The notes beneath the pieces are model-generated. The model made no database searches, was not told the DNA's origin, and was given only the letters and a program-made list of their open reading frames with translations. The position numbers and the translations under genes were made by a program. 64,000 nt of DNA from a virus: IMG/VR virus record IMGVR_UViG_3300044712_000936, positions 1-64,000 of that record. One strand, written 5' to 3'. Positions 47,264 through 63,771 of the stretch are shown piece after piece (position 1 is the stretch's first letter; every line of letters begins with the position of its first letter).

Positions 47264-48073
47264 TTCTAATTAGAAAACAAGATGTTTTTCAAACTAATTA
47301 GGTGTGCATAAATCTCGGTATAAGCATGTACCGGAAGCCCGCGCACGAGCGAATGAGGCGGTTACTCCCCTATTAGTAAGCCTAGTTCTGTAATCGGTGT
47401 CCTAACACTACGACACAAATAAAATAGGCACGTTGTAATATTGATTCACACAATTACGCTCATTACTCCATATTCCGTACATTCTAGGGAGTAATTATAA
47501 GCGAAGGATCGCCGCACTAATTCTAGTTTGTATTAGTTACTCTGTGATGTAATTAGATTATTGTTGTGCAAAATACCCTGGGATTTATATTACAGAATAT
47601 ATAGTGCCATATACTTTGTAATTAGACTACTAATTATTACTTTAAACATATATGAGGAGGAACGTTAAGACCGATCCTATTTTGGATACTTAGCATCATA
47701 ATAGTTAGCTTACTAATCATTAGCTTGCTAACGATCATAGGGTTGGGCCTATATATTCGCTTATCCGAATAAGTTATTAATCAGATAGTTCTTATAATAA
47801 TATAATCAGTCTCATATAGGCCATTGCCCTACACCCTAGATCAGCATTACAGATCAGCCATAGCAGTACACTCTGTTGTGTTGTTTGCTGTCTGTTCTTA
47901 TGCTCTGTGTGCTTCTCTGTTCTTTGTTTCCTACGATGCCTTTGTGACACTCTACAATGGCCCTATTTGACGAGATCCTATATATACGCGCATGGAAAGA
48001 CCCGTTTAACGCCATTTGTGCGACATATACGATTAGTACCAATTTAACTAACTAAGACAGGAGAAAAACGGCA

Positions 48074-48876
48074 ACGAAAGACTTTAATCTGATCAAGGCT
48101 TGTTTATGGGTTTTGGTGATCTCGATCTTGTATCGTCTCAACATCTTATCGGATGCAAGCGCCACGCTTATTTTGTTGTGCATTATCTATATCAAACTGG
48201 CGATCTTGTCCGATGTAGTCAAAGGAAAATAACATGATCAAATGGCTGTTTATTCTCGTGATGATTGCCATGCTTAACCAGAGCACGGATCAAAAATTCG
48301 GTATGAATAAACCTCACTCCGATCTAGACTGGAATCACTCTCAGGAATTCGTGCGCGAAAATGGCGAAAACGTTTTGTTTCATTTGTGCCCTCTGTTTAG
48401 TCCTGTGTGTGGATAACGAAAGGAATTAAAAATGATCCGCGTAAACTATACCGATCACAAAACCTCAGGCAGTTTGTTCTTTAAAACTCGTGAGGATCTC
48501 AACAAATGGCTGAGTCGTTTCGATCTGAATGCATACTCTCAGATCAAACAGGTTAAAAATGTGACTCACGTCAAAAACACCAAACGTCAATTTAAAGCGA
48601 CAATCGCGTTTGATCGGTAGTTCAAAAATGCATCTGTGATGCTCTCTGATGCCCCTATTTAAGCCGATAGGGGCAATTCTCATATAAGTAGACAAAGGGA
48701 GTAAAACGGCAATGAAAACACCACTAGCGGAATTGAAAGCAGAACTAACACGCACAATTGTTGATATGTACAGACAAGCAGCAAAAAAACCCTTGTCAGA
48801 AAAATCAAAGGGAGAATTACAAGGTTATGAGAATGTTTTAGCATGGATCGAACTACAAGAGTCAAAGGGAAAATAA
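48074..48876 (+). other. Operon of small early ORFs: 48074-48232 (ACG start, membrane), 48234-48416, 48432-48620, 48712-48876
   Basis: Each has an SD (AGGAG, AAGGA or GGGAG); manual translation of the two not in the track gives 52 and 54 aa, both ending KGK*. Confidence 0.55.
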
Positions 48877-48899
48877 AAACCCTTTGTACAAAGGTTTTT

Positions 48900-48931
48900 G
48901 AGTCTACTCTCATAAAGTAGACTCTTTTTTT
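48900..48931 (+). terminator. Intrinsic terminator
   Basis: GAGTCTACT-CTCATAA-AGTAGACTC-TTTTTTT. Confidence 0.85.
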
Positions 48932-49568
48932 GTTTATTGTTTAAATTATTCCCCTCTGTTTTATCTGGTTTATGGTTTCCCCTATTTCTATCAATAATAT
49001 TATATATTTATGTCCATCAATATATTTAAAAACAATAACTTATAAGCTTATATTTTTTATGATAAGTGTTTAAACAAATATATATTTATAGCTATCGATA
49101 CAATTCTACGATTCTGTGGTAATTAAAATCATCATTATCTAGTTTAATTAGTAAGATATTACAGAATAGTCCAGTTTCTACTTACACAGATTCAAACTTT
49201 TGATATACAAGATCACTATCTTGTTTTTTAACGTGATTTAACATTCGTGAGGGGAGAATCAGATCCCTAAAACAATTCTAAATACAAAAACAAACTCTTA
49301 AAAGACCCTTTACCGATTGTACTGCCCAACAAGGCCGATCTTCGACGTTTTAGGTCTTAACATAGCGGCCCTCTACAATGCCCCGTACAGCGATTCTAGT
49401 GCCCCTGCAAGCGCGGTTATTGATCCTGTAATTAGCTCACAAATAACAACTAGGCCTCATTTGTGAACATTGTAAATTTTTTTAAGAGAAAAGACCCAAA
49501 CAGCCCACAAATAGCGACATTTAAATCAGTACCAATATTGACCAATCAAAACAGGAGAGCAAACGAAA

Positions 49569-49813
49569 ATGAACACTGTCAAAGTTTACACAATGGCAAC
49601 AATGGGCTATATGGCGTTTTTGTTTTTCGTTTTGTTCGTGATTTTCGTCTCAGTGTTCAGTTATGCTATTTGGAGCATGTAACCATGAACCTCATTACTC
49701 TGATCTGGTTTTTACTCTCTCTGTTGTTTGGACATTTGTCGGATCCGTGCGATTCCCCTGAGGATCATAGCAACATCGGAATCGGCATTGATTACTACAC
49801 TTGCCAGCAATAG
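49569..49813 (+). other. Two small hydrophobic peptides (49569-49682, 49685-49813)
   Basis: SD ACAGGAG then MNTVKVY...FLFFVLFVIF..., followed by MNLITLIWFLLSLLFG.... Confidence 0.45.
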
Positions 49814-50466
49814 GGCATAAACAATCGAATAAACAAAGAAAAGCCAGCAAAAACTGGCTGTTTTTGATTCCGCAAATGTAAATTTTTTAGAACACAGGAT
49901 AAGAAAATGAGAGAGGAAATTAGAACATAAAACGAATTCCGCCTCATAGGGGATTGTGTTGTTTAAAAATATCCCCTACAATCTAAGTGTAACAAAGAAA
50001 AACAGAATAAGCGTTCTAGGCAAAGGCAAAACGAAAATGTTCAAAATCAACAGAAAATCTAGCAAACCACTAGGAAACACACTTAACCAAAGTGAACGAG
50101 AATTGCTAGTTGGTCTGATTTTGGGCATCAGAGAAACATACGCTATTGATATGGGCAAATTATCAATGGAACTAATGAGCACAAAACCAGAGAGAGGGGA
50201 ACCAATTTCTTATGAGGATTTTATAAGCGCGTTGTACTAAGCCGATCCGGGCAAGACTCAATACGAACAGATCGCAACCGAACCAAACGACATTAAGACC
50301 CGACTCAACCTTAACAATAGAACAGATAACAGGGCAGAAAACACCCTTAATGTAATGGCCCTCTATCGGACAAACTACCGAGTCAAAAATTGAAACTTAA
50401 ACTTACTTTGAAAAGACTCAGCAAAAACTTTAAAATCTGAGTGTAGCAAACAGGAGAGCAAAGGCA

Positions 50467-51123
50467 ATGACTCAAACGACACGCGAACTAGTTCGCATAA
50501 ACCTATCGTCAAAGGACAATGAGATCCAAACGCTTAACGCTATAGCGAACAGCATTAATGCCACAGATCCTAACTCTTATCTGGCCTCTCTGTTCACTCC
50601 TGAGTTTATTTCATGGGTTTCTCAAATGATCCACAGTGACATTATGCCTGATATGGAATCGGCATTAAAAGCAAACGAAAATAGCGCCCACAAAAACTCA
50701 GTTGAACACTCTCAAGCTGAGATCACAATCACAAAGCAAAGCGAATTGATTGACTCTCAGGCAGAAAGAATCGAAACATTAACCGAACGGATCGATCTCA
50801 AAACATCGGAGATCGATTACCTAAAACGGGAACAGAGAGATCTAGAGATCGCAGGAAAAAAACAGGAGTTAAAAGAGGCTTTTCACTTGACAGAGAAAGA
50901 TCTAGAGGTGGTTTGGTTCATGATCAAACGGTACTCGATTTTATATCACACTGATTACCTCTGGCGCGGTTGGTCACAGTATACGATCCGTAAGCTTGAG
51001 AAAAACGGACTAATCGACAACGAACCAGAAAACGGGATCTACAGTCTATCAATGAGGGTTGAACACTGGATCACCCAAAACATGACAAGTGAACTATTGT
51101 ACTCTGTACAGATGTTTGGATAA
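50467..51123 (+). CDS. Coiled-coil protein with possible C-terminal winged-helix
   Basis: SD AGGAG; central heptad region; LTEKDL...TIRKLEKNGLI...YSLS. Confidence 0.65.
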   Translation: MTQTTRELVRINLSSKDNEIQTLNAIANSINATDPNSYLASLFTPEFISWVSQMIHSDIMPDMESALKANENSAHKNSVEHSQAEITITKQSELIDSQAERIETLTERIDLKTSEIDYLKREQRDLEIAGKKQELKEAFHLTEKDLEVVWFMIKRYSILYHTDYLWRGWSQYTIRKLEKNGLIDNEPENGIYSLSMRVEHWITQNMTSELLYSVQMFG

Positions 51124-51255
51124 TGCCCCTATTTAATGAGGTAGGGGCAGGACAGCATAAACAGCAAAGGATCCTAATCTGTAGACACTATTCACCCAAA
51201 AAACACGACATAAATATAACGACCTGTATCTATAACACGAAAGGAAAAAAATCAA

Positions 51256-51471
51256 ATGCCTAACTTTTTTAAGACCGTAAAGCACGAATACGAACAGCAA
51301 AAAGAAACCAACGCAAAGAATGCGCGTACAATCGCGGAATTGCGCGCCCATTTATCGCATATGATCGAGTCTTGCAATTCCTCATTGGATGTAATTGATC
51401 CGCGTGATGATATTGCATTGGCACAAATGATCACACGGAAAAACACATGTGTTGAGATCCGCTTTCTATGA
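51256..51471 (+). CDS. Hypothetical protein
   Basis: 71 aa with SD AAGGA. Confidence 0.5.
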   Translation: MPNFFKTVKHEYEQQKETNAKNARTIAELRAHLSHMIESCNSSLDVIDPRDDIALAQMITRKNTCVEIRFL

Positions 51472-51635
51472 TGCCGCAGCAAACGGAGAAACAGAGGAGA
51501 TCGGCAGGGCATGTAGACGTATAGTGCGCATACTGTCGTAAGATTATTTATTAACTTATATTTCTTTTCACTTAGTATTTTTTAATATCCGCATTAAAAA
51601 TATAGGTTAGCGGATCGGACAAAGGAAAGGCGTAT

Positions 51636-52913
51636 ATGATCTCTGAATTCGAACAAACCTATGAAAATGATTATTTTCCATACGAACAGATCAATGATCT
51701 GATCTGGGAATGGATACGGCAAAACGATATTAGGCGGGCTTACCTTAACGTTGAATACGCGATGGATATTTGCCGCGAAAATTACGGGAAACTTAAGCCC
51801 GGTAAAATGATCGCAAACGCGATCAAAAAATTGATCCATATGCGGATCGATCAAATAAGGGAGGACAATTACGAGTACCAAAAACCGATTCTTGAAAAAT
51901 TGGAATCGCTTAAAATCTCTCCTGAGACAGTAACATTTTGGGGCAATGCCATAGCCAACCAACCGAAAGAAAAAATCACGATCCGTTTAACCTACGGTTG
52001 TAAAGGATCTGCACGTGAATACTATCATGTAGGTAGTTGTTGGTGGGGAGGGTATGAAACTAGTAGGGATTACTTGGAATCTAGCTATGGCGGAGCAATT
52101 CGCGCTTATCGTAATGATGAGATTGTAGGGCGAGTCTGGTTTATTCCCTATAGTGATGGAATCATCCTGTTTAACGCCTATGGTAAGGGGGAATTAGGGA
52201 GAATCGGATCTTGGAGCAACCTACTAAAACGATCCTTTCCTGATTATTTTGTTAGCAAGGTAATGCTGGAATTCGGGGGGGATCCTGGAGTCTTATTCCA
52301 GAATTCAGAGAGCACTAATCTGTACATTGGTCCTAACAAAATCAACGATGAAACGATCAGAATCGATCTGACTCGTCCTGAGAAATTTAAATACGCCAAA
52401 GATTTAACGTTTTGCTCTCATTGCGGGATCCCTATCATCGGCGGATCTGGTTATTCCACAACCGACAACGGAGTCATTTGTTACGCTTGTCAGAATCTTT
52501 TCTACGCCAGATCACGATCCACAGGGGCATGGATCCCAATTGAAAACGCGATAGAAGTTTATGATGCGTACAATGATCGGTACTATGAATCGCCTGACTC
52601 GCCTGACATTATCTATGCTAGGGCAATAAACCGTTATGTTTACATTACGGATTACTGGGTGGATGTTTTTGGTACTGCCCACAGGAGAGGCGCTAGATCC
52701 TGCTTCCGTTGTCGCGTCTCTGGTAACATTTATCCTGTAGATCGCTTAGTGTGGACACAGATCGGACCAGTAGATCGGACCAATTACGATCCTGAGGTTC
52801 ACGTTTTGGGAATTCCAGAACAACCGCAATATGCACCGAGTCTCAGTTTTGCGGATCGCCAGAATCAAATGGCCCTCCGGCGGCAATGGCAACAGTTAAC
52901 TAGTCTCATGTGA
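51636..52913 (+). CDS. Cys-rich hypothetical protein, paralog 1 of 4
   Basis: Core LTYGCKG..YYH..SCWWGGY..SR..GGAIRAY..GRVWF.P..DGI.LFNAYG plus CxxC repeats. Confidence 0.8.
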   Translation: MISEFEQTYENDYFPYEQINDLIWEWIRQNDIRRAYLNVEYAMDICRENYGKLKPGKMIANAIKKLIHMRIDQIREDNYEYQKPILEKLESLKISPETVTFWGNAIANQPKEKITIRLTYGCKGSAREYYHVGSCWWGGYETSRDYLESSYGGAIRAYRNDEIVGRVWFIPYSDGIILFNAYGKGELGRIGSWSNLLKRSFPDYFVSKVMLEFGGDPGVLFQNSESTNLYIGPNKINDETIRIDLTRPEKFKYAKDLTFCSHCGIPIIGGSGYSTTDNGVICYACQNLFYARSRSTGAWIPIENAIEVYDAYNDRYYESPDSPDIIYARAINRYVYITDYWVDVFGTAHRRGARSCFRCRVSGNIYPVDRLVWTQIGPVDRTNYDPEVHVLGIPEQPQYAPSLSFADRQNQMALRRQWQQLTSLM

Positions 52914-52929
52914 GATTAGTTCGCTATCT

Positions 52930-53325
52930 CTCTAGCCTCTCTCAGGAGAGGATATTCTATTTTATCTCAGTGTTGTGTAAGCTTCTGTAATGCCCTACAA
53001 TGGCCCTAATTAGGGAGATCGGTAGAAAACCACCTAAACAAGCATATCGCGTTAAATAGGGGCATTACAGAGGCTTACAGGGGCATTGTAGAAACAATTC
53101 AACACACAAAACTTAAGAGAGGGGTACAAAACTGGCTGTTTTTGTTCATGCTCTCCTGAGACGCTAAGGTAAGCAATTCAACACTGGCATAGATCCCAGG
53201 GTAATTTTTGGCCTATCCTGAGATGCTAAAATAGGCCTCACAATGCCCTACAATGCCCCCGTTTGATAGGTGCATGGTAGTTGATACCACTATATAACTG
53301 ATCGCCCCGTTTTGGGGCATTTGAT
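52930..53325. repeat. Nested inverted repeats/long hairpins
   Basis: TGTAAGCTTCTGTAATGCCC (52976-52995) vs GGGCATTACAGAGGCTTACA (53060-53079); TCTCAGGAGAG vs CTCTCCTGAGA; CAATGCCCC/GGGGCATTTG. Confidence 0.75.
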
Positions 53326-53362
53326 CGCGTTTTCTTTCTCTCAACTATAGAATAGGTGCAAT

Positions 53363-53581
53363 ATGTTTAGAACCATTAAAACAGAAAAAATTACAGAAAA
53401 AAGAATTCGGCTTAATTTCTATTTAAATAACGCTTATATGGGTTATTATGAGGCTTTGCCTTATATGGCGATAAGTGAACTACTAATACGTATTAACAAA
53501 GGCTATACGCTAGTAGAAGACTCAGCCCTACTAGTTAGCCCGAAAAGCACCTACGGGATTGACGAAAATTCCCGGCCTTAA
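53363..53581 (+). CDS. Hypothetical protein
   Basis: 72 aa with SD AGGTG. Confidence 0.5.
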   Translation: MFRTIKTEKITEKRIRLNFYLNNAYMGYYEALPYMAISELLIRINKGYTLVEDSALLVSPKSTYGIDENSRP

Positions 53582-53659
53582 TTTGTCAAATAGACATGAT
53601 AAATATACCCACAAAAATGAGATCGGCCCATTCTGATTCCGGCCTATTAAGATCGATCT

Positions 53660-54010
53660 AACGGATCGGCGTGCAACGTAGGGGACTCGGCGTGTAAATT
53701 TAAAACGGCAATGAGAGGGAACAGCGTGCAAAGATCCGGCCTAATTGACTCATACTATGGAATCGGCGTGCAACTTTTCGGCACTTTCGGCGTGCAAAGA
53801 ACGACTAAAGAATCAGCGTGCAAACCCTAGTAATAGAGGTGGAGGGTTGGGAATTGTATATATATACATAGAAAATGCTTTTCCTTGTCCAATGGATTGC
53901 CTATATAGTATATATAGATATATAGAACCTTTAAAAGAACAGTATAAAAGATCAAAACCTTTAAAAAGGAATCAGATCTTAGATCAATATAGAAAACCTT
54001 TAAAAGAAAT
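53660..54010. repeat. Cluster of CRGCGTGCAA direct repeats followed by an AT-rich tract (origin-like)
   Basis: Five copies plus one variant in 53665-53825, then (TA)n and AACCTTTAAAA x3. Confidence 0.6.
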
Positions 54011-54099
54011 AAGAATAGATCAAATACATTGACTCTATAATTAGAATATGATACAGTATATCTAAAAGAACACTATTAAAAACGAAAGGTTTAATATAA

Positions 54100-55346
54100 A
54101 TGGACATCGTAAAAATTATCGAATATCACGATAAGATTATAATGCACACTATTCTGTATAATGCTCCTGAATCAGTATGTGAAATTTCAAGAAAAGAATT
54201 GTATATGATTCAACGGCAATTATCTAAATGGTGGGTTACATCTTATACAGTAGAGTCAGATAAGACTACTACAATATATGAAAGGTATTAATATTATGAT
54301 CGAAACCGCCGCAATTATAAATGATATTAATAAGCGCATTGCTGAACAGCATAAACTGATTCAATTTTACCGTATGACATTATATGTCAATTTTAGCGGT
54401 GCATGTAAGATCGTATTGCGCTCCAAACAACAGAAAAAAGTTGTTATTAATGTGACATATTCTTATATGTCTGATGCGACCAGAGGAGCGGAAATATTAA
54501 ACAAATTAAAGCCGCATATTAGAATTATTATGCGGGATAATATTGTTAAGGGTATGATTATTACTTATCGGCTGTCCGTTAATTATATCTTTATTCATTC
54601 CGTTAATTAATTGATTTTCCTTAACAAAATAACCGCTTGCTTTTTTAGCAATGTGGTATATAATCTAATTAAAGCAGATGAATTAACAATTACCAATTAT
54701 TCAGCTATATAATACTCGTTTAAGTAGTTACTATTTGAACAGATCCGGAGTAGTGAACCGGGCGTAATTGCGAAATATCTGCTTTTTTATACTTATTATT
54801 TGGCTTATCTTCCGGCATTATTATGAGGACAAGCAAATGATCACAAATCAGGATATTGTCGTAGTTCTGTGTTCGTTTTTCACTGTGGGCTTTTGCTCCT
54901 GTCTAACCTATGTAGCGTTAAAGTCAATCAACCTGTTAAAACGCAAACACAAAAAAGAATTGGCAGAAAAACAGGCGGAGATCGACGCATTGTATAAGGA
55001 ATTATGGGCTGTTACTTTGCTGTACCATAGTGCCCCTGTTATTGTTGGCAAAGATCAAAAATTGCCTTTGGGCAAGATTCAAAAAGCTAACGGTACAATG
55101 CGCGAGGTTACAATCGGCGGCAAACGGTACATAGGACTAGAAAGTGAGATCCAGGCATACAGTAAGGGTAAAACTAAGGTATGCCGATCCTATTGGGAAT
55201 GGTCGAGTCGCCAAAACTGGAAAGAAGTGCATACTGAATATCTGATGGTTGATGAATCAGATGTTGCTAAGAGTTTTGTGCATGCAGACAGTACCCATTG
55301 TTACAAAGACTCTGTTGTCGATGTTTTGGAATTGGTGAAAAACTAA
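54100..55346 (+). other. Three hypothetical ORFs (54100-54291, 54278-54610, ~54837-55346)
   Basis: Co-directional; promoter-like TTGACT..TACAGT at ~54029 and TTGCTT..TATAAT at 54637-54664. Confidence 0.55.
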
Positions 55347-55413
55347 GTCCCTTTGTGCAAAGCTTTAGCGACTAAACTAGTGTACAGTATAGCATGAAAG
55401 GCAAAGGATACCG

Positions 55414-56661
55414 ATGGACATAAAAGAAACTACCAAAATTGCAGAAAGTCACAAGCATTATTCGCGGGACACGATTCGTAATGCTGTGATGTACATCAAA
55501 GATAAGTACCGCGTCGGAATCTATGTGGGCAATTTTAGTAAACTCTGTGAGTCTATCGAAGCAAGCGAAAATGACAAAAATGCCCCTAAGCCAGCCAAGT
55601 TAGTTGCTAAGGAATTTTTAACCTATCATGGTATCCATTTAACGGCTGATGATAAAGCGGTAATTGGTAAAATGTTCGCTGATTCTATCCGTAAATCGTC
55701 CTATAAAGTTTCCCTAACTCTAGGTTGCGATGGATCAGCAAAGGACTATTATCACGCTGATTCTTGTTGGTGGGGTGGCTACTCCGATTCGCGGGAATAT
55801 GTCGCCTATAACGGTGGTGGTGCTATCCGTGCTTATGATCCTGAGACTAACAAACTGTGTGGGCGTGTGTGGTTCCTTCCGGCTGATGATGGGATTGTTA
55901 TCTTTAACAGCTATGGGGTAAACGAACTACAGCACACAGAATCATGGGCAACTATAGCCTCTGAATTGTTATCCGCCCCCTATTGTAAATGTACTTTACA
56001 TTTGCAGCACGATCAGTATTTTTTCTTGAATGCTGGCGTGTATATCTATGTAGGTCCGAAAGTTGAACCAGATAAGCGAATCACGATCACCCTCGAGGAG
56101 TTTGACGAAAGAATCTATGATGATTCTGTTTACGCTTATTGCTCTGATTGTGATTGTGAGATTAGAAACGAGGACGATGCTTACTACACTGTTAACGGTA
56201 CAGTGTGCGAAAGTTGCTTTGATAGTTACGTATGTGTAGAATCAGAGGGCGGAGACTATTACCCTGAGGATGATTGTGTCTATTTGCTTCATGGGCGTTA
56301 TTCGGAATGGTTTCTAACGGATAGCTCTGATGTAGTCTCAACTATTAATGGTGCGTATGAATTAGTAGAAAACTGCATTGAGGACGTTTACGGCAATTAT
56401 TATCAGATGGATGATGATATTGACGATGTATTTCTGTGTGATGCTACAGAAGAATACTACCCTATTAGCGAACTTCTGACCCTTGCTGATGGTCGTCACA
56501 TTGCCGAGTCGAACTATGATCGGGATGAATACGGGCCACTAGAGGGAGAAGAACCAGAAGAGGACGATGACGAACCAGAGATCGCCCCTGTAGTTTTGCC
56601 CCTCCTTTCTGTAGGCTACTTTGGTTACATTCACTTTCAACTTCCGAACCTTGTATATTAG
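55414..56661 (+). CDS. Cys-rich hypothetical protein, paralog 2 of 4 (acidic tail)
   Basis: Same conserved core as paralog 1. Confidence 0.8.
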   Translation: MDIKETTKIAESHKHYSRDTIRNAVMYIKDKYRVGIYVGNFSKLCESIEASENDKNAPKPAKLVAKEFLTYHGIHLTADDKAVIGKMFADSIRKSSYKVSLTLGCDGSAKDYYHADSCWWGGYSDSREYVAYNGGGAIRAYDPETNKLCGRVWFLPADDGIVIFNSYGVNELQHTESWATIASELLSAPYCKCTLHLQHDQYFFLNAGVYIYVGPKVEPDKRITITLEEFDERIYDDSVYAYCSDCDCEIRNEDDAYYTVNGTVCESCFDSYVCVESEGGDYYPEDDCVYLLHGRYSEWFLTDSSDVVSTINGAYELVENCIEDVYGNYYQMDDDIDDVFLCDATEEYYPISELLTLADGRHIAESNYDRDEYGPLEGEEPEEDDDEPEIAPVVLPLLSVGYFGYIHFQLPNLVY

Positions 56662-57011
56662 CGTGCTAGACGCGCTGTAGTGCCCCTAAATGGGGCATTA
56701 CGGTTTACACAGGTATCGTCTACCGTGTACTATCAGAATTGAGGCAAGCATGGCGAATAAACAGATCAGATATATCACGACTTATACAGGATACAACGAC
56801 CACACTGGCAACGTTGACACGACTATTAATGTTGAACGAACAGACGGATCTGTGCGAACGTTTGAGTTGGCTAGTTTTGCCAACTGTGCTCGAATTCAGA
56901 ATATCTATAATACCCATAATTTAAATACTAAAATTAACGTTTATCCTGGTGCTACCTTTGTTATGTGGTGTAGGTTTTGGGTAGACTACTATGCTTTGAC
57001 AGGTAAAAATT

Positions 57012-57506
57012 ATGATCAACAAACAGCTAAGACCAGCCCCACGCCACAATAGACCAAACAGGCGTGAAACTTATTATCTAGTGGCGTGCCAGATCTGTGG
57101 CAAGGATCGCTGGCTGAGAAAATCTGATATTGGAACAGCGTGCAGATCCTGTGCTATGAGATTCCGCGACAAAACTTCTCTATTAAGGGCAGTACAACGG
57201 AAACAGCGTATGGCCCCTAGCAAGCCAGAGGCTACCGTTTTAGATTGGTTGACGAGAATCGGCGTGCAGTTTGAGCATCAGGCGATCTTCGATGACAGCG
57301 TGTTAGATTTTCGACTAGGATCGGCGTATGTCGAAGTTAACGGTTACTGGCATTTGCACAATCCTCGCAAGATACAAAAAGATCAGCGTATAGCGGAACA
57401 GCTAGGTAAAAACTTGCTGGTTATCGATGCAAAAGATGTTGTTGAGAAACCTGTAAAAGCTTACCTTTCTTTAATCCAGTTTATTACGACAGCGTGCAAC
57501 GTATAG
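57012..57506 (+). CDS. Zn-ribbon plus DUF559/Vsr-like endonuclease
   Basis: CQICG..CRSC; SKPE...FEHQ...LDF...VEVNGYWH...KDQR. Confidence 0.7.
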   Translation: MINKQLRPAPRHNRPNRRETYYLVACQICGKDRWLRKSDIGTACRSCAMRFRDKTSLLRAVQRKQRMAPSKPEATVLDWLTRIGVQFEHQAIFDDSVLDFRLGSAYVEVNGYWHLHNPRKIQKDQRIAEQLGKNLLVIDAKDVVEKPVKAYLSLIQFITTACNV

Positions 57507-58253
57507 GAGTCATAATGCCTAAATTGACGGACTTTGAACGAGGGACAATCGTTAGAGTTATTAAACCCTTTGATGCTGATCGAACACCGTGCCCCCAAAA
57601 AGGCACAGTAGGTATTGTGTACCGGGTAGATGATGATGGTTTTATCTGTGTGGCTTTCTTTCTACCGATGTGGGATACACGCGGTAACGAGTGGTTATCT
57701 CAGGGCAATAATAGCATATTTATGCGATTGCGTTTCTTTCCTGATGAACTAGAGATCGTTGACGTTTTGTAAGTGATTAATAATTGAACAGCGTGCAACA
57801 AAACAGGAGTATAAAATGGATCATACAGAATGCATAATTTGGAACATATTTATATTAATACTTTCTTTCGGTTCGATTATATTGGCAAGCACTATATCTG
57901 GTCTGTTGATGATCGTGCTAGGTACAGTGGGAGTCTTTGGTTTGTATTTTAGCGTCATATCCCTCGCTACTCTGTTAGGCGACGATTATAAATAAGGAGA
58001 AATTATGTATACAAATAGGTTTTTTATAATGGCGTTGTTAATGACGCTGTTCTATAGCAAGGCAAACGATAAGTTAGAATTCAGTATTGTTGTTATTGCT
58101 ATGTTCGTAATATACAGCCTATCGGCTATTGCTGACGAGTTACACAATATCAATAAACATCTAAGCAAAAAATAACGTGCAACGAATTGTCAAACCCTTA
58201 AGATAGGCCTCTGTAGTGGAGACATACCTTAAGGGAATCTCCTACCTTTTCTC

Positions 58254-58281
58254 TTGACTTAACGTGCAACTGTGGTATAAT
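58254..58281 (+). promoter_or_regulatory. sigma70 promoter with ACGTGCAAC motif in the spacer
   Basis: TTGACT, 16 bp, TATAAT with extended TG. Confidence 0.7.
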
Positions 58282-58322
58282 TGTAATTAGAGTAAAAGAC
58301 AGGGTAAAGGATAAACCTACTT

Positions 58323-59288
58323 ATGATGATTCAAGACGGTTACACACAGATTTACTCTGGTTTCGCGGGTGTTTCTCGTCGTTGTCTGGATAACGTCTAT
58401 ACGTGGTTGATTAACCGCTACAATGTCAGTAATCCAGCACAATACGAACACTTTAACGCTTTTGTAGAAACCGTGCAGAAAACGGAATCGCGCCCAACTA
58501 AGGCTATCTGCAAATTTTTCCACGACGTTTTTAACGTGGACATTAATTCATATGACAAGGCAACAGCCGGAACATATATCCGTAAAAATTCCCTCATGGG
58601 ATCCTACAAATTCGTTTTTACCTACGGTTGTGCTGGCAATGCTGCTGATTATTACCACAGTAATTCCTGTTGGTTCCACGAGTATCCAACTTCGCGTGAT
58701 ATGCTTGAGGGAAATGGTGGGGGTGCAATTCGGGCCTACACTGTTGATACCAACGACATTACTGGTCGGGTCTGGTTCTTGCCTCACGACGATGGTTTGG
58801 TGTTGTTCAACAGCTACGGACAGGGAGATTTACAGCATACCCAAACGTGGGGTGCTGTGGTAGCTCATTTGTTGGATACTTTGACCTGTGAAGCAAAACT
58901 GAATATTGACTCTCCCTATATGATTTACATTAACGGATCTAAAGCGGCATATGTAGGGCCAAAAGTAGTCAACGACACTAAGCAAATCGACGTCACATTG
59001 AAAACGCCCACTGTTTTCCATTACACTCCTGTGCAATACTGCCATGATTGTAATCGTGTTTTGGTTCGAGGTGGCGAACGAGTGTACATTAGTATGGCTG
59101 ATTATTATGTATGTGATAAGTGCGTTGATCGTTATACCTATGTCCAAAACCGTGTAGGTATGTACCCCTCTCATATGTGTGTGAGAGTGTACGTTCACGG
59201 TGCATTTATCGGTAACTATTTGTGTACAGAACCGGGGATTGTTTACGACGAAAAAATGGGATACTATACCTTTCGAGAACGAATGTAA
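58323..59288 (+). CDS. Cys-rich hypothetical protein, paralog 3 of 4
   Basis: Same conserved core as paralog 1. Confidence 0.8.
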   Translation: MMIQDGYTQIYSGFAGVSRRCLDNVYTWLINRYNVSNPAQYEHFNAFVETVQKTESRPTKAICKFFHDVFNVDINSYDKATAGTYIRKNSLMGSYKFVFTYGCAGNAADYYHSNSCWFHEYPTSRDMLEGNGGGAIRAYTVDTNDITGRVWFLPHDDGLVLFNSYGQGDLQHTQTWGAVVAHLLDTLTCEAKLNIDSPYMIYINGSKAAYVGPKVVNDTKQIDVTLKTPTVFHYTPVQYCHDCNRVLVRGGERVYISMADYYVCDKCVDRYTYVQNRVGMYPSHMCVRVYVHGAFIGNYLCTEPGIVYDEKMGYYTFRERM

Positions 59289-59306
59289 AACGGAAAAGAG
59301 AAAGCA

Positions 59307-60230
59307 ATGAAAACAAATCGACTACAAAAATACTGCAATGTTTCCATTGAACACCTACGCAAGATAGGAAAGTTTACGCCTTGTACTCGTGACGGTGCGG
59401 GATATACCTTTATTGATCGCGGATCAAATGTGCTGGCAGTAGCTCACATCGATACCGTGCAACAGGGAACAAACTTTAAGGTTACTGGTTTAAATGGCGG
59501 TGCAGTGTACTCCCCTCGTTTGGATGATAGACTCGGCGCTTACACGATTATAGAATATCTACCATCGGTAGGTGTCAAAATGGACGTGCTGCTTTGTGAG
59601 GACGAAGAAACTATGCAAAGCACAGCGGCCTACTTTCAAACGCTAAAGAAATACAATTGGATGGTTGAGTTTGATCGCGGTGGTCGTGACACAGTTTTGT
59701 ATCAATATCACTATGATAAAACCTTTTCTGATGAACTAGAACGACACGGTTTTATCTTGGGGCACGGAACCTATAGCGATATTGCTGACTTGGGACATTT
59801 AGGCTGTTTAGGTGTGAATTGTTCGGCTGGTTATTACAATTACCATACCAAAGACGCCTTTGTTTTAGTTGAAGTGTGGCAGAAGTCAGTTGATAGTTTT
59901 GTCAGTTTCTATAACGATAACAAAGACACCTATTATCCTCACGACAAGACTAACGATTACTACAACGAAAGTTCACTGTGGGATCGGGACGATTACTACT
60001 ACGGGACAGGCAAGTACGGTACTACGTATTATGGTAACAAAAAGAATAATCGTGCTCTGGTCAATGTAGAGTGGACTAAATGCCCTACCTGTGAAGAAGT
60101 CCGTACAGATCGGGCAGATCGTAACCTGATCGACTACTTTGGAATGTGTTCAGAGTGTTTGATTTACGTGGATCGTTATCAACAGAAGTACAATAAGAAT
60201 CCTAATCCCCCCACTACTCAGGGGGGATGA
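59307..60230 (+). CDS. M28/M20-like Zn metallopeptidase
   Basis: AHIDTV, LDDRLG, DEE, EFDRGG, GTYSD, NCSAGYYNYHT. Confidence 0.8.
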   Translation: MKTNRLQKYCNVSIEHLRKIGKFTPCTRDGAGYTFIDRGSNVLAVAHIDTVQQGTNFKVTGLNGGAVYSPRLDDRLGAYTIIEYLPSVGVKMDVLLCEDEETMQSTAAYFQTLKKYNWMVEFDRGGRDTVLYQYHYDKTFSDELERHGFILGHGTYSDIADLGHLGCLGVNCSAGYYNYHTKDAFVLVEVWQKSVDSFVSFYNDNKDTYYPHDKTNDYYNESSLWDRDDYYYGTGKYGTTYYGNKKNNRALVNVEWTKCPTCEEVRTDRADRNLIDYFGMCSECLIYVDRYQQKYNKNPNPPTTQGG

Positions 60231-61561
60231 TACCTATTGAGAGAAAGGCTATAACGATGGATTTAAAAGATACGTCTTTTGTGTACACGACTGATGGTAT
60301 GTCTTATGATCCAGATACCTTGTACAAGGCGTTAGAGTGGTTGCACCATTCACATCATATTGAGTGTTGCCCCTGCCATACCTTGCCAGCCATAAGCGAA
60401 TACCTAGAAAATACCACAGCTAAACCAGCTAAAGCTATTTCTAAGTATTTTGCTGATCATTATGGTATTAAACTGGCGACAGAACAGCGTACAGAGTTTG
60501 GCAACCGGGTTAGCTGTGCTCGTATGGCACGCACCTATAAGGTGGTATTAACCCTCGGTTGTCAGGGTAACTCGGATGATTATTATCATGAACGGTCTTG
60601 CTGGTGGGGTAGTTATAGCATTTCTCGTGACTTTGTTGAGTTTAACGGCGGCGGCGCTGTCCGTGTTTACACCATAGATGGAGACATTCAGGGTAGAGTG
60701 TGGTTTTTGCCCTTCGATGATGGTATTGTTCTGTTTAATAGTTATGGTCTAGGCGAATTACAGCATGTACATTCGTGGGGGCCAATAGTCGCACAGCTAT
60801 TAGATACAGATTTTTGTAAGTCAACTATGGAAATTCTCAACAATCGGGGACATCTTTACATTAACAGTGAGGTTTCTGCTTATGTAGGGCCAAAAATTGT
60901 ACCTATTTCAACTAAACACTGTAAGATTCGGCTATCTATCCCTGACAGGTTCGTATACAGCCCTGCTAGGGTCTGTAGTCATTGTGAAAGGGTATTTAGC
61001 GATGGCGGAGATGTTCGTTTGCTGGAATTTAATGATCAGTATGTTTGTGGAGGTTGCCTAGACGAATATTATGCCTACGATGTGATAGATCGTATGTATA
61101 AGCCCAAAGAATTAATGCAAAAGGTTTGGGGCATGTTCCAATACTCTACGGCACGTCAAAAATGGTTTTCAGTTGTGCCAAGTGACGCGGTATATATAGA
61201 TTCAATGGGCTATTGTTTACCAGATTGTTTGGTTGATGATGTTTATGGTACTCAACATCTAGTAGGATCTGGTACTTATTTTCGCTGTGACTTCTCCGAT
61301 AAACTCTATCCTAGAAGTGAGTGGACAAGGACTGTATTAGGTGCGGTGGCTAAATCTGTTGTAGCTACCGACGAATTTAAAGCTAAGGTAGCTGAATACG
61401 AAAAGACGCAAGAGAAAGCCAGAGATGAGTGGAGACAGGAACGTCTTTTTCGCTCTACAGGAATAACACAAAAGAGTGCGTCATTCAATTTTAAACCACC
61501 GTCTATTGACTGGGGAACACTGTTTACAAACTTTGTCGATGACGATCAGGACCATTCTTAA
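60227..61561 (+). CDS. Cys-rich hypothetical protein, paralog 4 of 4
   Basis: Same conserved core as paralog 1. Confidence 0.8.
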   Translation: MIPIERKAITMDLKDTSFVYTTDGMSYDPDTLYKALEWLHHSHHIECCPCHTLPAISEYLENTTAKPAKAISKYFADHYGIKLATEQRTEFGNRVSCARMARTYKVVLTLGCQGNSDDYYHERSCWWGSYSISRDFVEFNGGGAVRVYTIDGDIQGRVWFLPFDDGIVLFNSYGLGELQHVHSWGPIVAQLLDTDFCKSTMEILNNRGHLYINSEVSAYVGPKIVPISTKHCKIRLSIPDRFVYSPARVCSHCERVFSDGGDVRLLEFNDQYVCGGCLDEYYAYDVIDRMYKPKELMQKVWGMFQYSTARQKWFSVVPSDAVYIDSMGYCLPDCLVDDVYGTQHLVGSGTYFRCDFSDKLYPRSEWTRTVLGAVAKSVVATDEFKAKVAEYEKTQEKARDEWRQERLFRSTGITQKSASFNFKPPSIDWGTLFTNFVDDDQDHS

Positions 61562-61578
61562 CGGAGTGGTCCTCCACC

Positions 61579-62360
61579 ATGAGAGGGGATCCTATGAAGA
61601 TTCTTATTGAACAACAGGGATCGAAACAGCGTGCAACTTTTTGTGTTATTGTGCAAAAAGGTAAAACTAGTAAGAGTGTTTCCGGTATTTCTGATAAAGC
61701 AGTCATGAGGATTTTGCGGTGGATATGCAAGAAAAACTTTACTTATCAAGGTGCGACTTTTGATGTGGCATCCGATACAGTTACGATTGTCTTTGTCGGG
61801 GAGATGGTTTCCAATGTTGCCTCTTAGTTTTGAAACTAAAGACATCGAGTGGACACGCGAGGAAATACGTGCTGTCTTAGACCTGATTAAAAAACAGGAA
61901 CCTACGTTACTCAGGGTATCTATGCCCGATGCTTGGCTGTTCAAAAAGTCTTTGTACAAAGGCCAAACATACTATATAGCACGGCGCATGACTTCTTTTA
62001 GCTGTGACGCTGTAACCACAACCTTCGATAACTTTATTGCTGAAATGGAGTCTTACTATGATCGCTACTATGGGAGAGGGTATGAAAACTACCTTAAAAA
62101 CAGTAGTTATTAAGTTCAACGATGTAAAGGACGGAAGTCACCCTGATCGTGTACATATGATTGAATATGTTTATGCTGATGGGACAACGTGCAGCTTGGC
62201 AGGAAACGATGATCTGGTGATGGGGGTTGTACTGACTCTTATGAAACTCGGTTTATCGAACCAGCGTGCAGCACAGGAATTAGTGGACAATTCTAGCGGT
62301 GAACCTGTGGTTGTTGAGGACGATGTGCAACCGCTGGTGGCAGAATACGTACTGCAATAA
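61579..62360 (+). other. Three small hypothetical ORFs
   Basis: 61579-61827, ~61814-62113 and ~62082-62360, overlapping in series. Confidence 0.5.
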
Positions 62361-62391
62361 AAAAAGAACCCGGCTCATCACCGGGTTTTTT
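62360..62391. terminator. Bidirectional intrinsic terminator
   Basis: AAAAAAGAACCCGG-CTCATCA-CCGGGTTTTTT between convergent genes. Confidence 0.85.
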
Positions 62392-62397
62392 GTTTGT

Positions 62398-63234
62398 CTA
62401 CAATGTACAGGCGTTGTTTGTGTGTTTGGTATGGGCAATTCTAGCACCTTTCGGCGTAGAGGTATAGCCATCTTTACCACATTCACATTCCCAACGATAC
62501 CGCTTCTTTTTTGGATTACTGGGGATATAACTGATATATTCTGGTAAACCATAGATAATCTTGTTTGGCTCTGGCAGCTGCTTTTGTTTAGGCTCTGAGA
62601 TTAGGGGTACAGAATCACTAACAGGCTGATCAATAACCGGATCGGCGTGCAACGTTATAGTCAGTAATTGGCGTCGAAGTTTCTGTACATATTCAGCCTG
62701 TAATTCATCGGCAATGTTCATGATAGCCAATTCCATTTGTTTGTTTTTAACGGTTCGCTGTTTTTCACTCAGCTGGCGTGCATCTTTTCTTTCTTGTCTA
62801 ACCTTGTCTCGTTCAAAAAAGATTTCCCAGTGAGAATCCTTGTAGGCTCTCCAATCAGCTACAAACCAGCCTGTTGTCACCACCGTCATGATACCTAAAC
62901 CAATACGAGGGGCAAAGGCCATCAGTCCACTGTCCTTGAAGCCAATGACCACGATGGATAAATAGAGCGCAAATAGACCCATCACGTAGGCCCACCGTAC
63001 CGCTATAGTCTCATCGTCCCTTATTGGCTCCTCGAGAAAGCCAAGTAAAGCAATATACATAATATCAATCAGAAACACAGCTAATATTGTTGCTGTAGTT
63101 GCTACAAATTCACCGTGCCCTCTCAACTCTTGCTTAAAAATGTCCCATGTAGAAACCGAATTAAACGCGGTTCCTGCAACCTTAGCGATCAACCACAACT
63201 GTTTATTAGTAATGTTTTTTATAAAGTTCTTCAT
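62398..63234 (-). CDS. Multi-TM membrane protein with coiled coil and C-terminal Zn-finger
   Basis: About 4 TM helices; WECECG...AH..H...C; own promoter TTGCAT-17-TATAAT at 63275-63303. Confidence 0.7.
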   Translation of the reverse strand: MKNFIKNITNKQLWLIAKVAGTAFNSVSTWDIFKQELRGHGEFVATTATILAVFLIDIMYIALLGFLEEPIRDDETIAVRWAYVMGLFALYLSIVVIGFKDSGLMAFAPRIGLGIMTVVTTGWFVADWRAYKDSHWEIFFERDKVRQERKDARQLSEKQRTVKNKQMELAIMNIADELQAEYVQKLRRQLLTITLHADPVIDQPVSDSVPLISEPKQKQLPEPNKIIYGLPEYISYIPSNPKKKRYRWECECGKDGYTSTPKGARIAHTKHTNNACTL

Positions 63235-63499
63235 GTGAGATTAACCTTCCGCTATGATGGATAATAATACTTTAATTATATCATCGTTTTGTTTAGAATG
63301 CAAGAGGTATTTATTCTTTTTTAATTGTTACAGCGTAGGTGACTATATTAAGTACATCCTGTACATTATTTATGATAATACGATTAGCGGAAACAGCGTG
63401 CAACACTAGAAAAACAAGAAGTAAATTAGTGATAAAGGAGAGCACCAGCAGTAAAATAAGTATCATTGTTAGAATCCCGTTATAAAATAGATGAAAGGC

Positions 63500-63528
63500 T
63501 TGACAAACATTCAACTGTATAGTATTAT
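63500..63528 (+). promoter_or_regulatory. sigma70 promoter for the small-RNA array
   Basis: TTGACA, 17 bp, TATTAT. Confidence 0.8.
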
Positions 63529-63647: not shown

Positions 63648-63771
63648 TGCGGGTCGTTTGGTGTACGTTACCGATGCTAACGGAGTGGTTAGAGGTTCGA
63701 ATCCTTTACCCCGGCAACGGGGTTAGCTCAATTGGTAGAGCACTTAACCGTATACCTACCTATTATCCGCA
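63648..63771 (+). ncRNA. YrlA-like Y RNA (circularly permuted tRNA mimic)
   Basis: T arm AGAGGTTCGAATCCTTT, then closed acceptor stem ACCCCG-GCAA-CGGGGT, then D arm TAGCTCAATTGGTAGAGC, enclosed by GGTGTACG/CGTATACC and TGCGGGT/ATCCGCA. Confidence 0.8.

Follow-up and report, generated by a model that had tools for sequence, protein, structure and literature searches.

The question raised by this locus is why a phage should carry one short DNA word, always in the same orientation, throughout a single block of some 11 kb. The stretch analysed (the window, 64,000 nucleotides) comprises bases 1–64000 of IMG/VR record IMGVR_UViG_3300044712_000936, which is 87,169 bp long, has terminal repeats, is rated complete and belongs to an uncultured soil phage with a GC content of 41%; near-identical sequence is present in two rhizosphere DNA runs from two different studies. 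The original prediction held that the hexamer CGTGCA occurs about 19 times on the plus strand over the 10 kb from 53660, against 1–2 expected, and that it is missing from the minus strand. Both statements were confirmed by counting: between 53670 and 63402, there are 19 copies on the plus strand and none on the minus strand, whereas the rest of the window contains one and five, respectively. In the whole record the cluster extends past the window end and spans 53670–64685, with 24 plus-strand and 0 minus-strand copies (two-sided binomial p ~1e-7).

The background was taken from order-1 Markov simulations of the zone, in which CGTGCA, GCGTGCA and CRGCGTGCA averaged 2.2, 0.5 and 0.05 copies, with maxima of 6, 3 and 2, respectively. 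GCGTGCA was found 17 times on the plus strand and 0 times on the minus strand of the zone, compared to once on each strand in the other 76 kb, and CRGCGTGCA was found 14 and 0 times, respectively, in the entire genome, every copy lying within 53667–64690. The strands are thus far from balanced, and the excess over the Markov background is 10-fold or more. Shuffling of the whole window gave no excess of CGTGCA (25 vs 21), because that shuffle averages across 64 kb. A k-mer skew comparison was run genome-wide as an unbiased search of repeated 11- and 12-mers, and the leading strand-asymmetric word of the genome was this motif.

The consensus first put forward, CRGCGTGCAA, was correct as far as it went but too short. 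Alignment of 15 copies yielded an asymmetric 15-nt word, GRAWCRGCGTGCAAC, to which conservation is confined, the flanks being without any. There are 15 full copies, all within 53667–64691 and all in the direction of the rightward genes, together with about nine half or partial copies, and the other 19 kb of the rightward arm are free of the motif. Two subtypes can be distinguished, one with ATCGG and one with AACAG in the 5′ part of the word. The 5′ half alone, CRGCGT followed by AT or GT, is over-represented, with about five copies in 57083–57400, as is the 3′ half alone, WAMCGTGCAAC, with four copies (58173, 58260, 59453 and 64192). That each half-word is enriched alone fits a protein that reads two adjacent half-sites; a monomer that contacts DNA through two domains, like the one in the structure of the TipsytheTRex repressor, would be suited to such half-sites. 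Two of the partial copies, at 64283 and 64423, are probably chance occurrences, because they coincide with codons that are also conserved in the Ro60 gene of G001, a syntenic relative of this phage; the full copy at 64682 lies inside a two-codon Ro60 insertion specific to the present phage.

The edges of the motif field follow the layout of the genome. Leftward genes occupy 1–47 kb and 83–87 kb and rightward genes 50–83 kb, and a gene-poor, GATC-rich control region at 47–54 kb is the point at which both arms diverge. As had been claimed, the motif starts where the GATC block ends, GATC occurring 21–33 times per 2 kb over 48–54 kb. The zone is opened, within a 520-bp intergenic region (53582–54099), by cluster A (53661–53826, plus strand), which has six co-oriented copies at 53667, 53688 (a GTGTAA variant), 53722, 53764, 53788 and 53814, that is, within 160 bp and with start-to-start distances of 21, 34, 42, 24 and 26 bp. 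The right edge lies directly after Ro60, where a GC-rich hairpin (genome positions 65594–65610) is followed by a perfect 12/12 promoter at 65618–65645 (TTGACA-16-TATAAT with TG; L009 1594–1645); the last copies are inside Ro60, and the units beyond this promoter are without copies. The motif field coincides with three or four transcription units, from the control region to the 65.6-kb promoter.

Although about 89% of the zone is called coding, nine of the 15 full copies lie in non-coding DNA, six of these nine forming one array; the coding figure counts the doubtful low-scoring open reading frames (ORFs) 53745–54032 and 63311–63514 as genes, while the copies at 53764, 53788, 53814 and 63394 inside those two ORFs were treated as non-coding. 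The full copies within genes comprise those at 61627, 62262 and 64682 in rightward genes, two in the body of the cluster B ORF (57012–57506) and one that is antisense to its gene. They use three reading frames and minor codons (e.g., GCG 0.13, TCG 0.09 and ACG 0.13), and the three frames, the antisense copy and the minor codons together point to selection on the nucleic acid rather than on the peptide. The view that the polarity is not a codon effect thus holds, with the in-gene frames and the antisense copy as the better argument. The argument given at first, persistence of the polarity inside minus-strand genes, stands for one gene, 62398–63234, which has copies at 62646 and 62777; every other minus-strand ORF of the zone scores as non-coding.

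Three copies end 6–13 nt ahead of a ribosome-binding site, and those at 57490 and 57789 are among the copies immediately upstream; the latter (57785–57799, plus strand) is intergenic and precedes the AGGAG ribosome-binding site of gene 57816–57995 by 6 nt. The strongest sigma70-like promoter of the zone, at 58254–58281 on the plus strand (TTGACT-16-TATAAT with TG), has its spacer filled by a 3′-half copy, TAACGTGCAAC (58260–58270, plus strand), so that the earlier report of a copy in a promoter spacer proved right (CGTGCA at 58263). The identical half-copy at 58173–58183 (plus strand) overlaps the stop codon of gene 58005–58175, and a further one, TACCGTGCAAC (59453–59463, plus strand), lies within an M28-like peptidase gene. 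Full copies are present on the plus strand in the small gene 61594–61827 (61623–61637, codons CAG CGT GCA) and in gene 62058–62360 (62258–62272, a CAG variant ending in G). A two-way terminator-like hairpin (62363–62391) then separates the rightward genes from the only real leftward gene of the zone (62398–63234, minus strand; 278 aa, with N-terminal membrane helices), inside which a full copy (62639–62653) and a partial copy (62776), both on the plus strand, are antisense. The 17-mer at the full copy, GGATCGGCGTGCAACGT, is that of the first cluster A copy. The next full copy, 63390–63404 (plus strand), is non-coding and about 100 bp upstream of the promoter of the Y-RNA operon (63500–63528). 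Rightward RNA should be scarce at both the perfect copy 62643, which is past the two-way terminator, and the perfect copy 63394, which is upstream of the next promoter, and this favours a role at the level of DNA over one at the level of RNA.

We therefore tentatively propose, as a possible reading that falls somewhat short of probable, that the copies are duplex-DNA docking sites at which one sequence-specific protein acts, in an operator- or stoperator-like manner, on early transcription running rightward. The functions initially suggested, a directional signal or an operator, agree in part with this proposal, in that the 15-nt word is asymmetric, its polarity is 100%, it is enriched in non-coding DNA, a half-copy occupies a promoter spacer and the zone is a block of transcription units. 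In this scenario, a protein, probably encoded by the phage itself, would read the asymmetric 15-bp word and act on RNA polymerase moving rightward across 53.7–65.6 kb. We infer that such a protein binds the word and blocks rather than helps transcription, repression being its most likely action. The copy in the promoter spacer at 58254–58281 would serve as an operator, while the entrance array of cluster A and the copies scattered between and within genes would act as one-way roadblocks to elongation, and the block would be silenced as a unit, in lysogeny or at an early-to-middle switch.

The closest parallel is provided by the repressors of Cluster A mycobacteriophages, which bind 20–30 asymmetric 13-bp sites oriented with transcription, reversal of a site abolishing repression (PMC9283540, PMC6550527). 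As in that system (L5 gp71, Bxb1, TipsytheTRex), the word of the present phage is short (13 bp there, 15 here), asymmetric, present in many copies and co-oriented with transcription; sites lie between genes and in promoters, the promoter site of the present phage being a half-copy. All copies here are on the plus strand and the genes of the block are likewise all on the plus strand but one, and the copy in the leftward gene follows the block rather than the gene. Furthermore, the word differs between related Cluster A phages, and the lack of the word in G001 parallels heteroimmune relatives that carry different words. However, the Cluster A sites extend over both genome arms rather than one 11-kb block, and the present phage, which is unrelated to that group, has dense arrays and six in-gene copies, while no gp71-like protein was recognised in it. 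MrpR (also YopR), the master repressor of the Bacillus phage SPbeta, binds a 15-bp repeated element (SPBRE) at intergenic sites (PMC10516654). The two systems share a 15-bp repeated word and dispersed, mainly intergenic sites in a large phage, with a single regulator in SPbeta; MrpR, though, has a tyrosine-recombinase fold that has lost its catalytic residues, whereas the integrase-like protein of the present phage keeps R, HxxR, H and Y.

Two further systems are more distant. The C1 operators of phage P1 are asymmetric 17-bp sites for a monomeric repressor and are dispersed over many kb, but they stand at promoters all over P1, and no C1-like protein was found here. The PeSL cassettes of T4-type phages consist of a promoter and a hairpin; like the present word, they are repeats that share one orientation and mark the borders of genes within a plastic early region, but the word has neither a −10/−35 pair nor a hairpin. 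Detailed knowledge of oriented fields of dispersed sites is limited to Cluster A actinophages and a small number of other phages, such as SPbeta and P1. The case described here is sharply bounded, strictly polar, kept within coding sequence and found in a phage with almost no recognisable early genes. It offers a test of whether one-way transcription roadblocks are a general phage strategy, and the 15-mer is a clean bait for a regulator that current profile libraries cannot recognise. Since the block holds four paralogues of one uncharacterised protein family, a peptidase, the Y-RNA operon and Ro60, its control probably times host-takeover and RNA-handling genes.

Several observations weigh against repression through docking sites. 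The sites are not genome-wide, being absent from both the leftward early arm and the replication genes. Of the full copies, six (40%) are inside genes, and stoperators do not typically form arrays as dense as those seen here, with six copies in 160 bp and about eight in 450 bp. The one copy that overlaps a promoter is a half-copy, and neither the promoter at 54029 nor that at 63500 carries the word. The temperate lifestyle of the phage is uncertain, though an integrase-like gene is present, and a positive role of the copies as pause or loading sites for an antiterminator could explain those beyond the terminator. Furthermore, Pfam scans of the 106 ORFs detected no helix-turn-helix, sigma, repressor or NusG-like (NGN/KOW) domain. 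The weak reader candidate p218 (50467–51123, plus strand; 218 aa), which has an N-terminal domain, a coiled coil and a possible C-terminal winged helix, is unconfirmed: its AF2 model with coiled-coil homologues is one long helix, and Pfam and PDB sequence searches with it gave no match.

The winged helix of p218 was indicated solely by ESM Atlas structural neighbours (TM 0.53–0.66), its remote homologues are coiled-coil proteins with no assigned function, and the protein is absent from G001. Sequence searches of the PDB with three candidates returned no repressor-like chain, no gp71-type query having been used, and Pfam and PHROGs searches with the zone proteins, as well as an ESM Atlas search with the 100-aa protein of 62058–62360, were uninformative. 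Inspection of the integrase-like protein P0056 revealed LRRAE, HTLRR, LRHS and EKY, so that R, H-x-x-R, H and Y are present. It is a poor analogue of MrpR because these catalytic residues are kept and because it has an orthologue in G001, which has no motif.

Positive elongation signals are the first alternative to repression, though we consider them unlikely. The copies would be non-template pause-and-load sites, like ops for RfaH or nut for N, allowing read-through of the hairpin at 62363–62391 and transcription of the 11 kb as one unit. The polarity does track transcription, the array stands at the start of the block as leader-located loading sites would, and the copies beyond the two-way terminator would be met only by read-through polymerase. 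The ops/JUMPStart element read by RfaH is a polar word of the non-template strand found once or twice in operon leaders, and the CAG subtype of the present word has AGCGTG in common with ops (GGCGGTAGCGTG). In addition, a T-G step follows 9 nt downstream of the G at motif position −4, as in the G−10/Y−1/G+1 pause consensus. However, the likeness to ops amounts to six bases, known loading sites number one or two per operon rather than 15–24, and among the 106 ORFs neither a NusG paralogue or other NGN/KOW protein nor an N/Q-like protein was detected, though a reader of the ops/RfaH type may be host-encoded. No clear promoter was found upstream of cluster A either, the best scoring 9/12. RNAalifold detected no conserved pairs around 13 copies, so that the word is not a nut-, RNase III- or terminator-like structure. 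A related and likewise unlikely idea is that a protein of unrecognised fold imposes one-way control on a moving machine across the 11-kb domain, either by phage-encoded antitermination or pause-loading with many reloading sites or as a polar barrier to rightward forks or polymerases; if true, the virus would use a dense field of oriented sites, even in coding sequence, to set the fate of a host-takeover gene block.

It is rather improbable that the word is read in early mRNAs by an RNA-binding protein or a ribonuclease, comparable to T4 RegA or RegB acting on early messages, with cluster A as a multi-site decoy or leader. Nearly every gene of the block has the word on its sense strand, three copies are just upstream of ribosome-binding sites, and RNA-related functions are prominent in the phage (Y RNAs, Ro60 and an RNA ligase). 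However, the perfect copies 62643 (antisense and past the terminator) and 63394 (upstream of a promoter) would rarely be in sense RNA, the half-copy in the promoter spacer is untranscribed, no structure is conserved, and most copies are not close to start codons.

We would give a similarly small chance to replication sites, with cluster A as origin iterons beside an unwinding region and the other copies either titrating or pairing with the initiator or acting as polar fork barriers of the Ter/Tus or RTP kind. In phage P4, iterons are found at ori and also at crr, which is 4.5 kb from it, and Ter sites are asymmetric and polar. Cluster A is followed directly by an AT-rich stretch (53850–54060) that contains TATATA runs and the 13-mer AAAACCTTTAAAA three times, twice with a GATC in front of it, and that ends in a promoter-like site at 54029–54057 (TTGACT-17-TACAGT); the six direct repeats of the cluster lie beside the 150 bp that rank second in the genome for AT content. 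The most AT-rich 150-bp windows of the genome are 48983–49132 (18% GC) and then one within 53850–54060 (21% GC), and either could be an origin unwinding element. However, the spacing in the array is irregular (21–42 bp), no initiator gene adjoins cluster A, the replication genes starting 12 kb away, and iterons need no strict polarity over 11 kb. Nor did Pfam scans of the phage ORFs detect a Tus or RTP family. Among repeat-bearing non-coding regions, that at 47–50 kb is the most AT-rich, and since it matches an iteron-like array in G001, it is a better origin candidate than cluster A.

A signal for DNA translocation or recombination (Chi-like, KOPS-like, injection, packaging or primase) or a strand-specific nicking site as in T5 is very unlikely. 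The strict strand polarity would suit such a signal, and the densest cluster of copies is carried by a phage-specific endonuclease-like gene in the zone. This is cluster B (57083–57500, plus strand), which has three full copies (57136, 57260 and 57490) and about five 5′-half copies (57083, 57203, 57296, 57321 and 57383), about eight copies in 450 bp, the last of which ends 15 nt ahead of the ATG of the next gene (57515). The ORF that holds it, 57012–57506, is absent from G001 and its coding score is low; the 164-aa product has a zinc ribbon at its N-terminus. We read the C-terminal part of this product as a possible Vsr/EDxHD-like, homing-endonuclease-like domain, for which the sole database match is a non-significant one (E 0.44) to the mobile-intron protein 3r3p_A. 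The Chi/KOPS, DNA-entry and primase functions initially considered fit poorly, because the word is 15 nt rather than 5–8 nt long, because the 11 kb that contain it are placed centrally on the map, with more than 20 kb between them and the terminase gene (28–30 kb), and because no copy occurs in the remaining 19 kb of the arm.

Still more doubtful is the idea that a phage methyltransferase, or a restriction or BREX-like system of the host, targets the word, whose copies would then have one orientation since enzymes such as those of Type III need head-to-head sites. The phage encodes four DNA methyltransferase domains, one of them Eco57I-like; some copies contain GTGCAG, the BsgI site; and one-way site orientation defeats Type III cleavage in T7. 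However, such pressure removes sites and does not raise them at least 10-fold in one zone, a modification site is much shorter than the word conserved here, and GTGCAA outside the zone occurs at the expected frequency (14 and 11 seen vs ~17 per strand by a composition-based estimate). The suggestion of a second modification motif zoned after GATC was right in that the motif abuts the end of the GATC block, but the link looks coincidental: the GATC-dense block (47500–54000) is matched at the syntenic place in G001 (L056 2500–5100), and the two features appear to be separate because G001 keeps the block but not the motif.

Equally hard to credit is the view that a phage-specific RNA polymerase or sigma factor uses the word as its promoter. 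The copies are co-oriented with genes, several are upstream of genes and the length is near that of some single-subunit polymerase promoters. However, a search found no second element (−10) at a fixed distance from the word and no RNA polymerase or sigma gene was found among the phage ORFs, which together make a promoter unlikely; six copies 21–42 bp apart and many in-gene copies would be odd for promoters, and good sigma70-type promoters already serve the block.

The phage encodes a tape-measure protein, a large terminase, a family A DNA polymerase, a DnaB-like helicase, a primase, an integrase-like recombinase, an RNA ligase and Ro60. Megablast of the motif zone against 50,697 phage records gave no match, and tblastn with the DNA polymerase and the terminase returned only relatives of less than 30% identity and no close cultured phage. 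A search for related loci with the DNA polymerase as the query yielded nothing, whereas one with an alignment of a paralogue family of the phage yielded one syntenic IMG/VR relative, the 82-kb G001, and, in metagenomes, four contigs of less than 2.4 kb each. Gene order in G001 is the same as in the phage, and protein identity is 31–56% where alignable. No comparable polar word was found in G001; four copies of CRGCGTATC[CT] are on its plus strand at 46.5–50.2 kb, but this pattern was defined post hoc and is too weak to count.

The paralogue family has four members in the phage (51636–52913, 55414–56661, 58323–59288 and 60227–61561) and three in G001 (L056 10000–13060). Its invariant core is GC.G...YYH..SCW...SR...GG..R.Y...RVWF.P, accompanied by C-terminal Cys pairs, and a search of 5.8 billion proteins yielded only five further members beyond the phage and G001. 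The family's AF2 model (pLDDT 75) had no PDB match at E<=0.001, the weak rows being GNAT-like and LIM-like. A YrlA-like Y RNA at 63658–63761 (Rfam RF02553, 39 bits, under the gathering score), upstream of the Ro60 gene with its TROVE and vWA domains, was the sole match in an Rfam scan of 46–64 kb.

Scans of IMG/VR and 185,579 genomes for arrays of the motif returned only tandem repeats and unrelated arrays. Irregular TTAGCGTGCAA arrays were seen in unrelated IMG/VR contigs (L055 13067–13133, L050 10262–10451 and L046 9264–9312); the L055 array, which looks like a pac site, lies in a small ORF that immediately precedes the genes for the large terminase and the portal. The core GCGTGCAA, common to arrays of the L055 type and the present motif, is probably a coincidence.

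A second, palindromic word, CCTTTGTACAAAGG-like, is dispersed over the whole phage genome and is often intergenic (2236, 30736, 44935, 48882, 55351, 61950 and genome position 82570). G001 has a counterpart, CCTTATYRATAAGG, at about 10 places, including 12128, 27008, 47928, 53742, 64916 and 79445 (L061–L065). The outer CCTT...AAGG is common to both words and the centre differs, and the palindromic word may be the operator of a conserved dimeric regulator.

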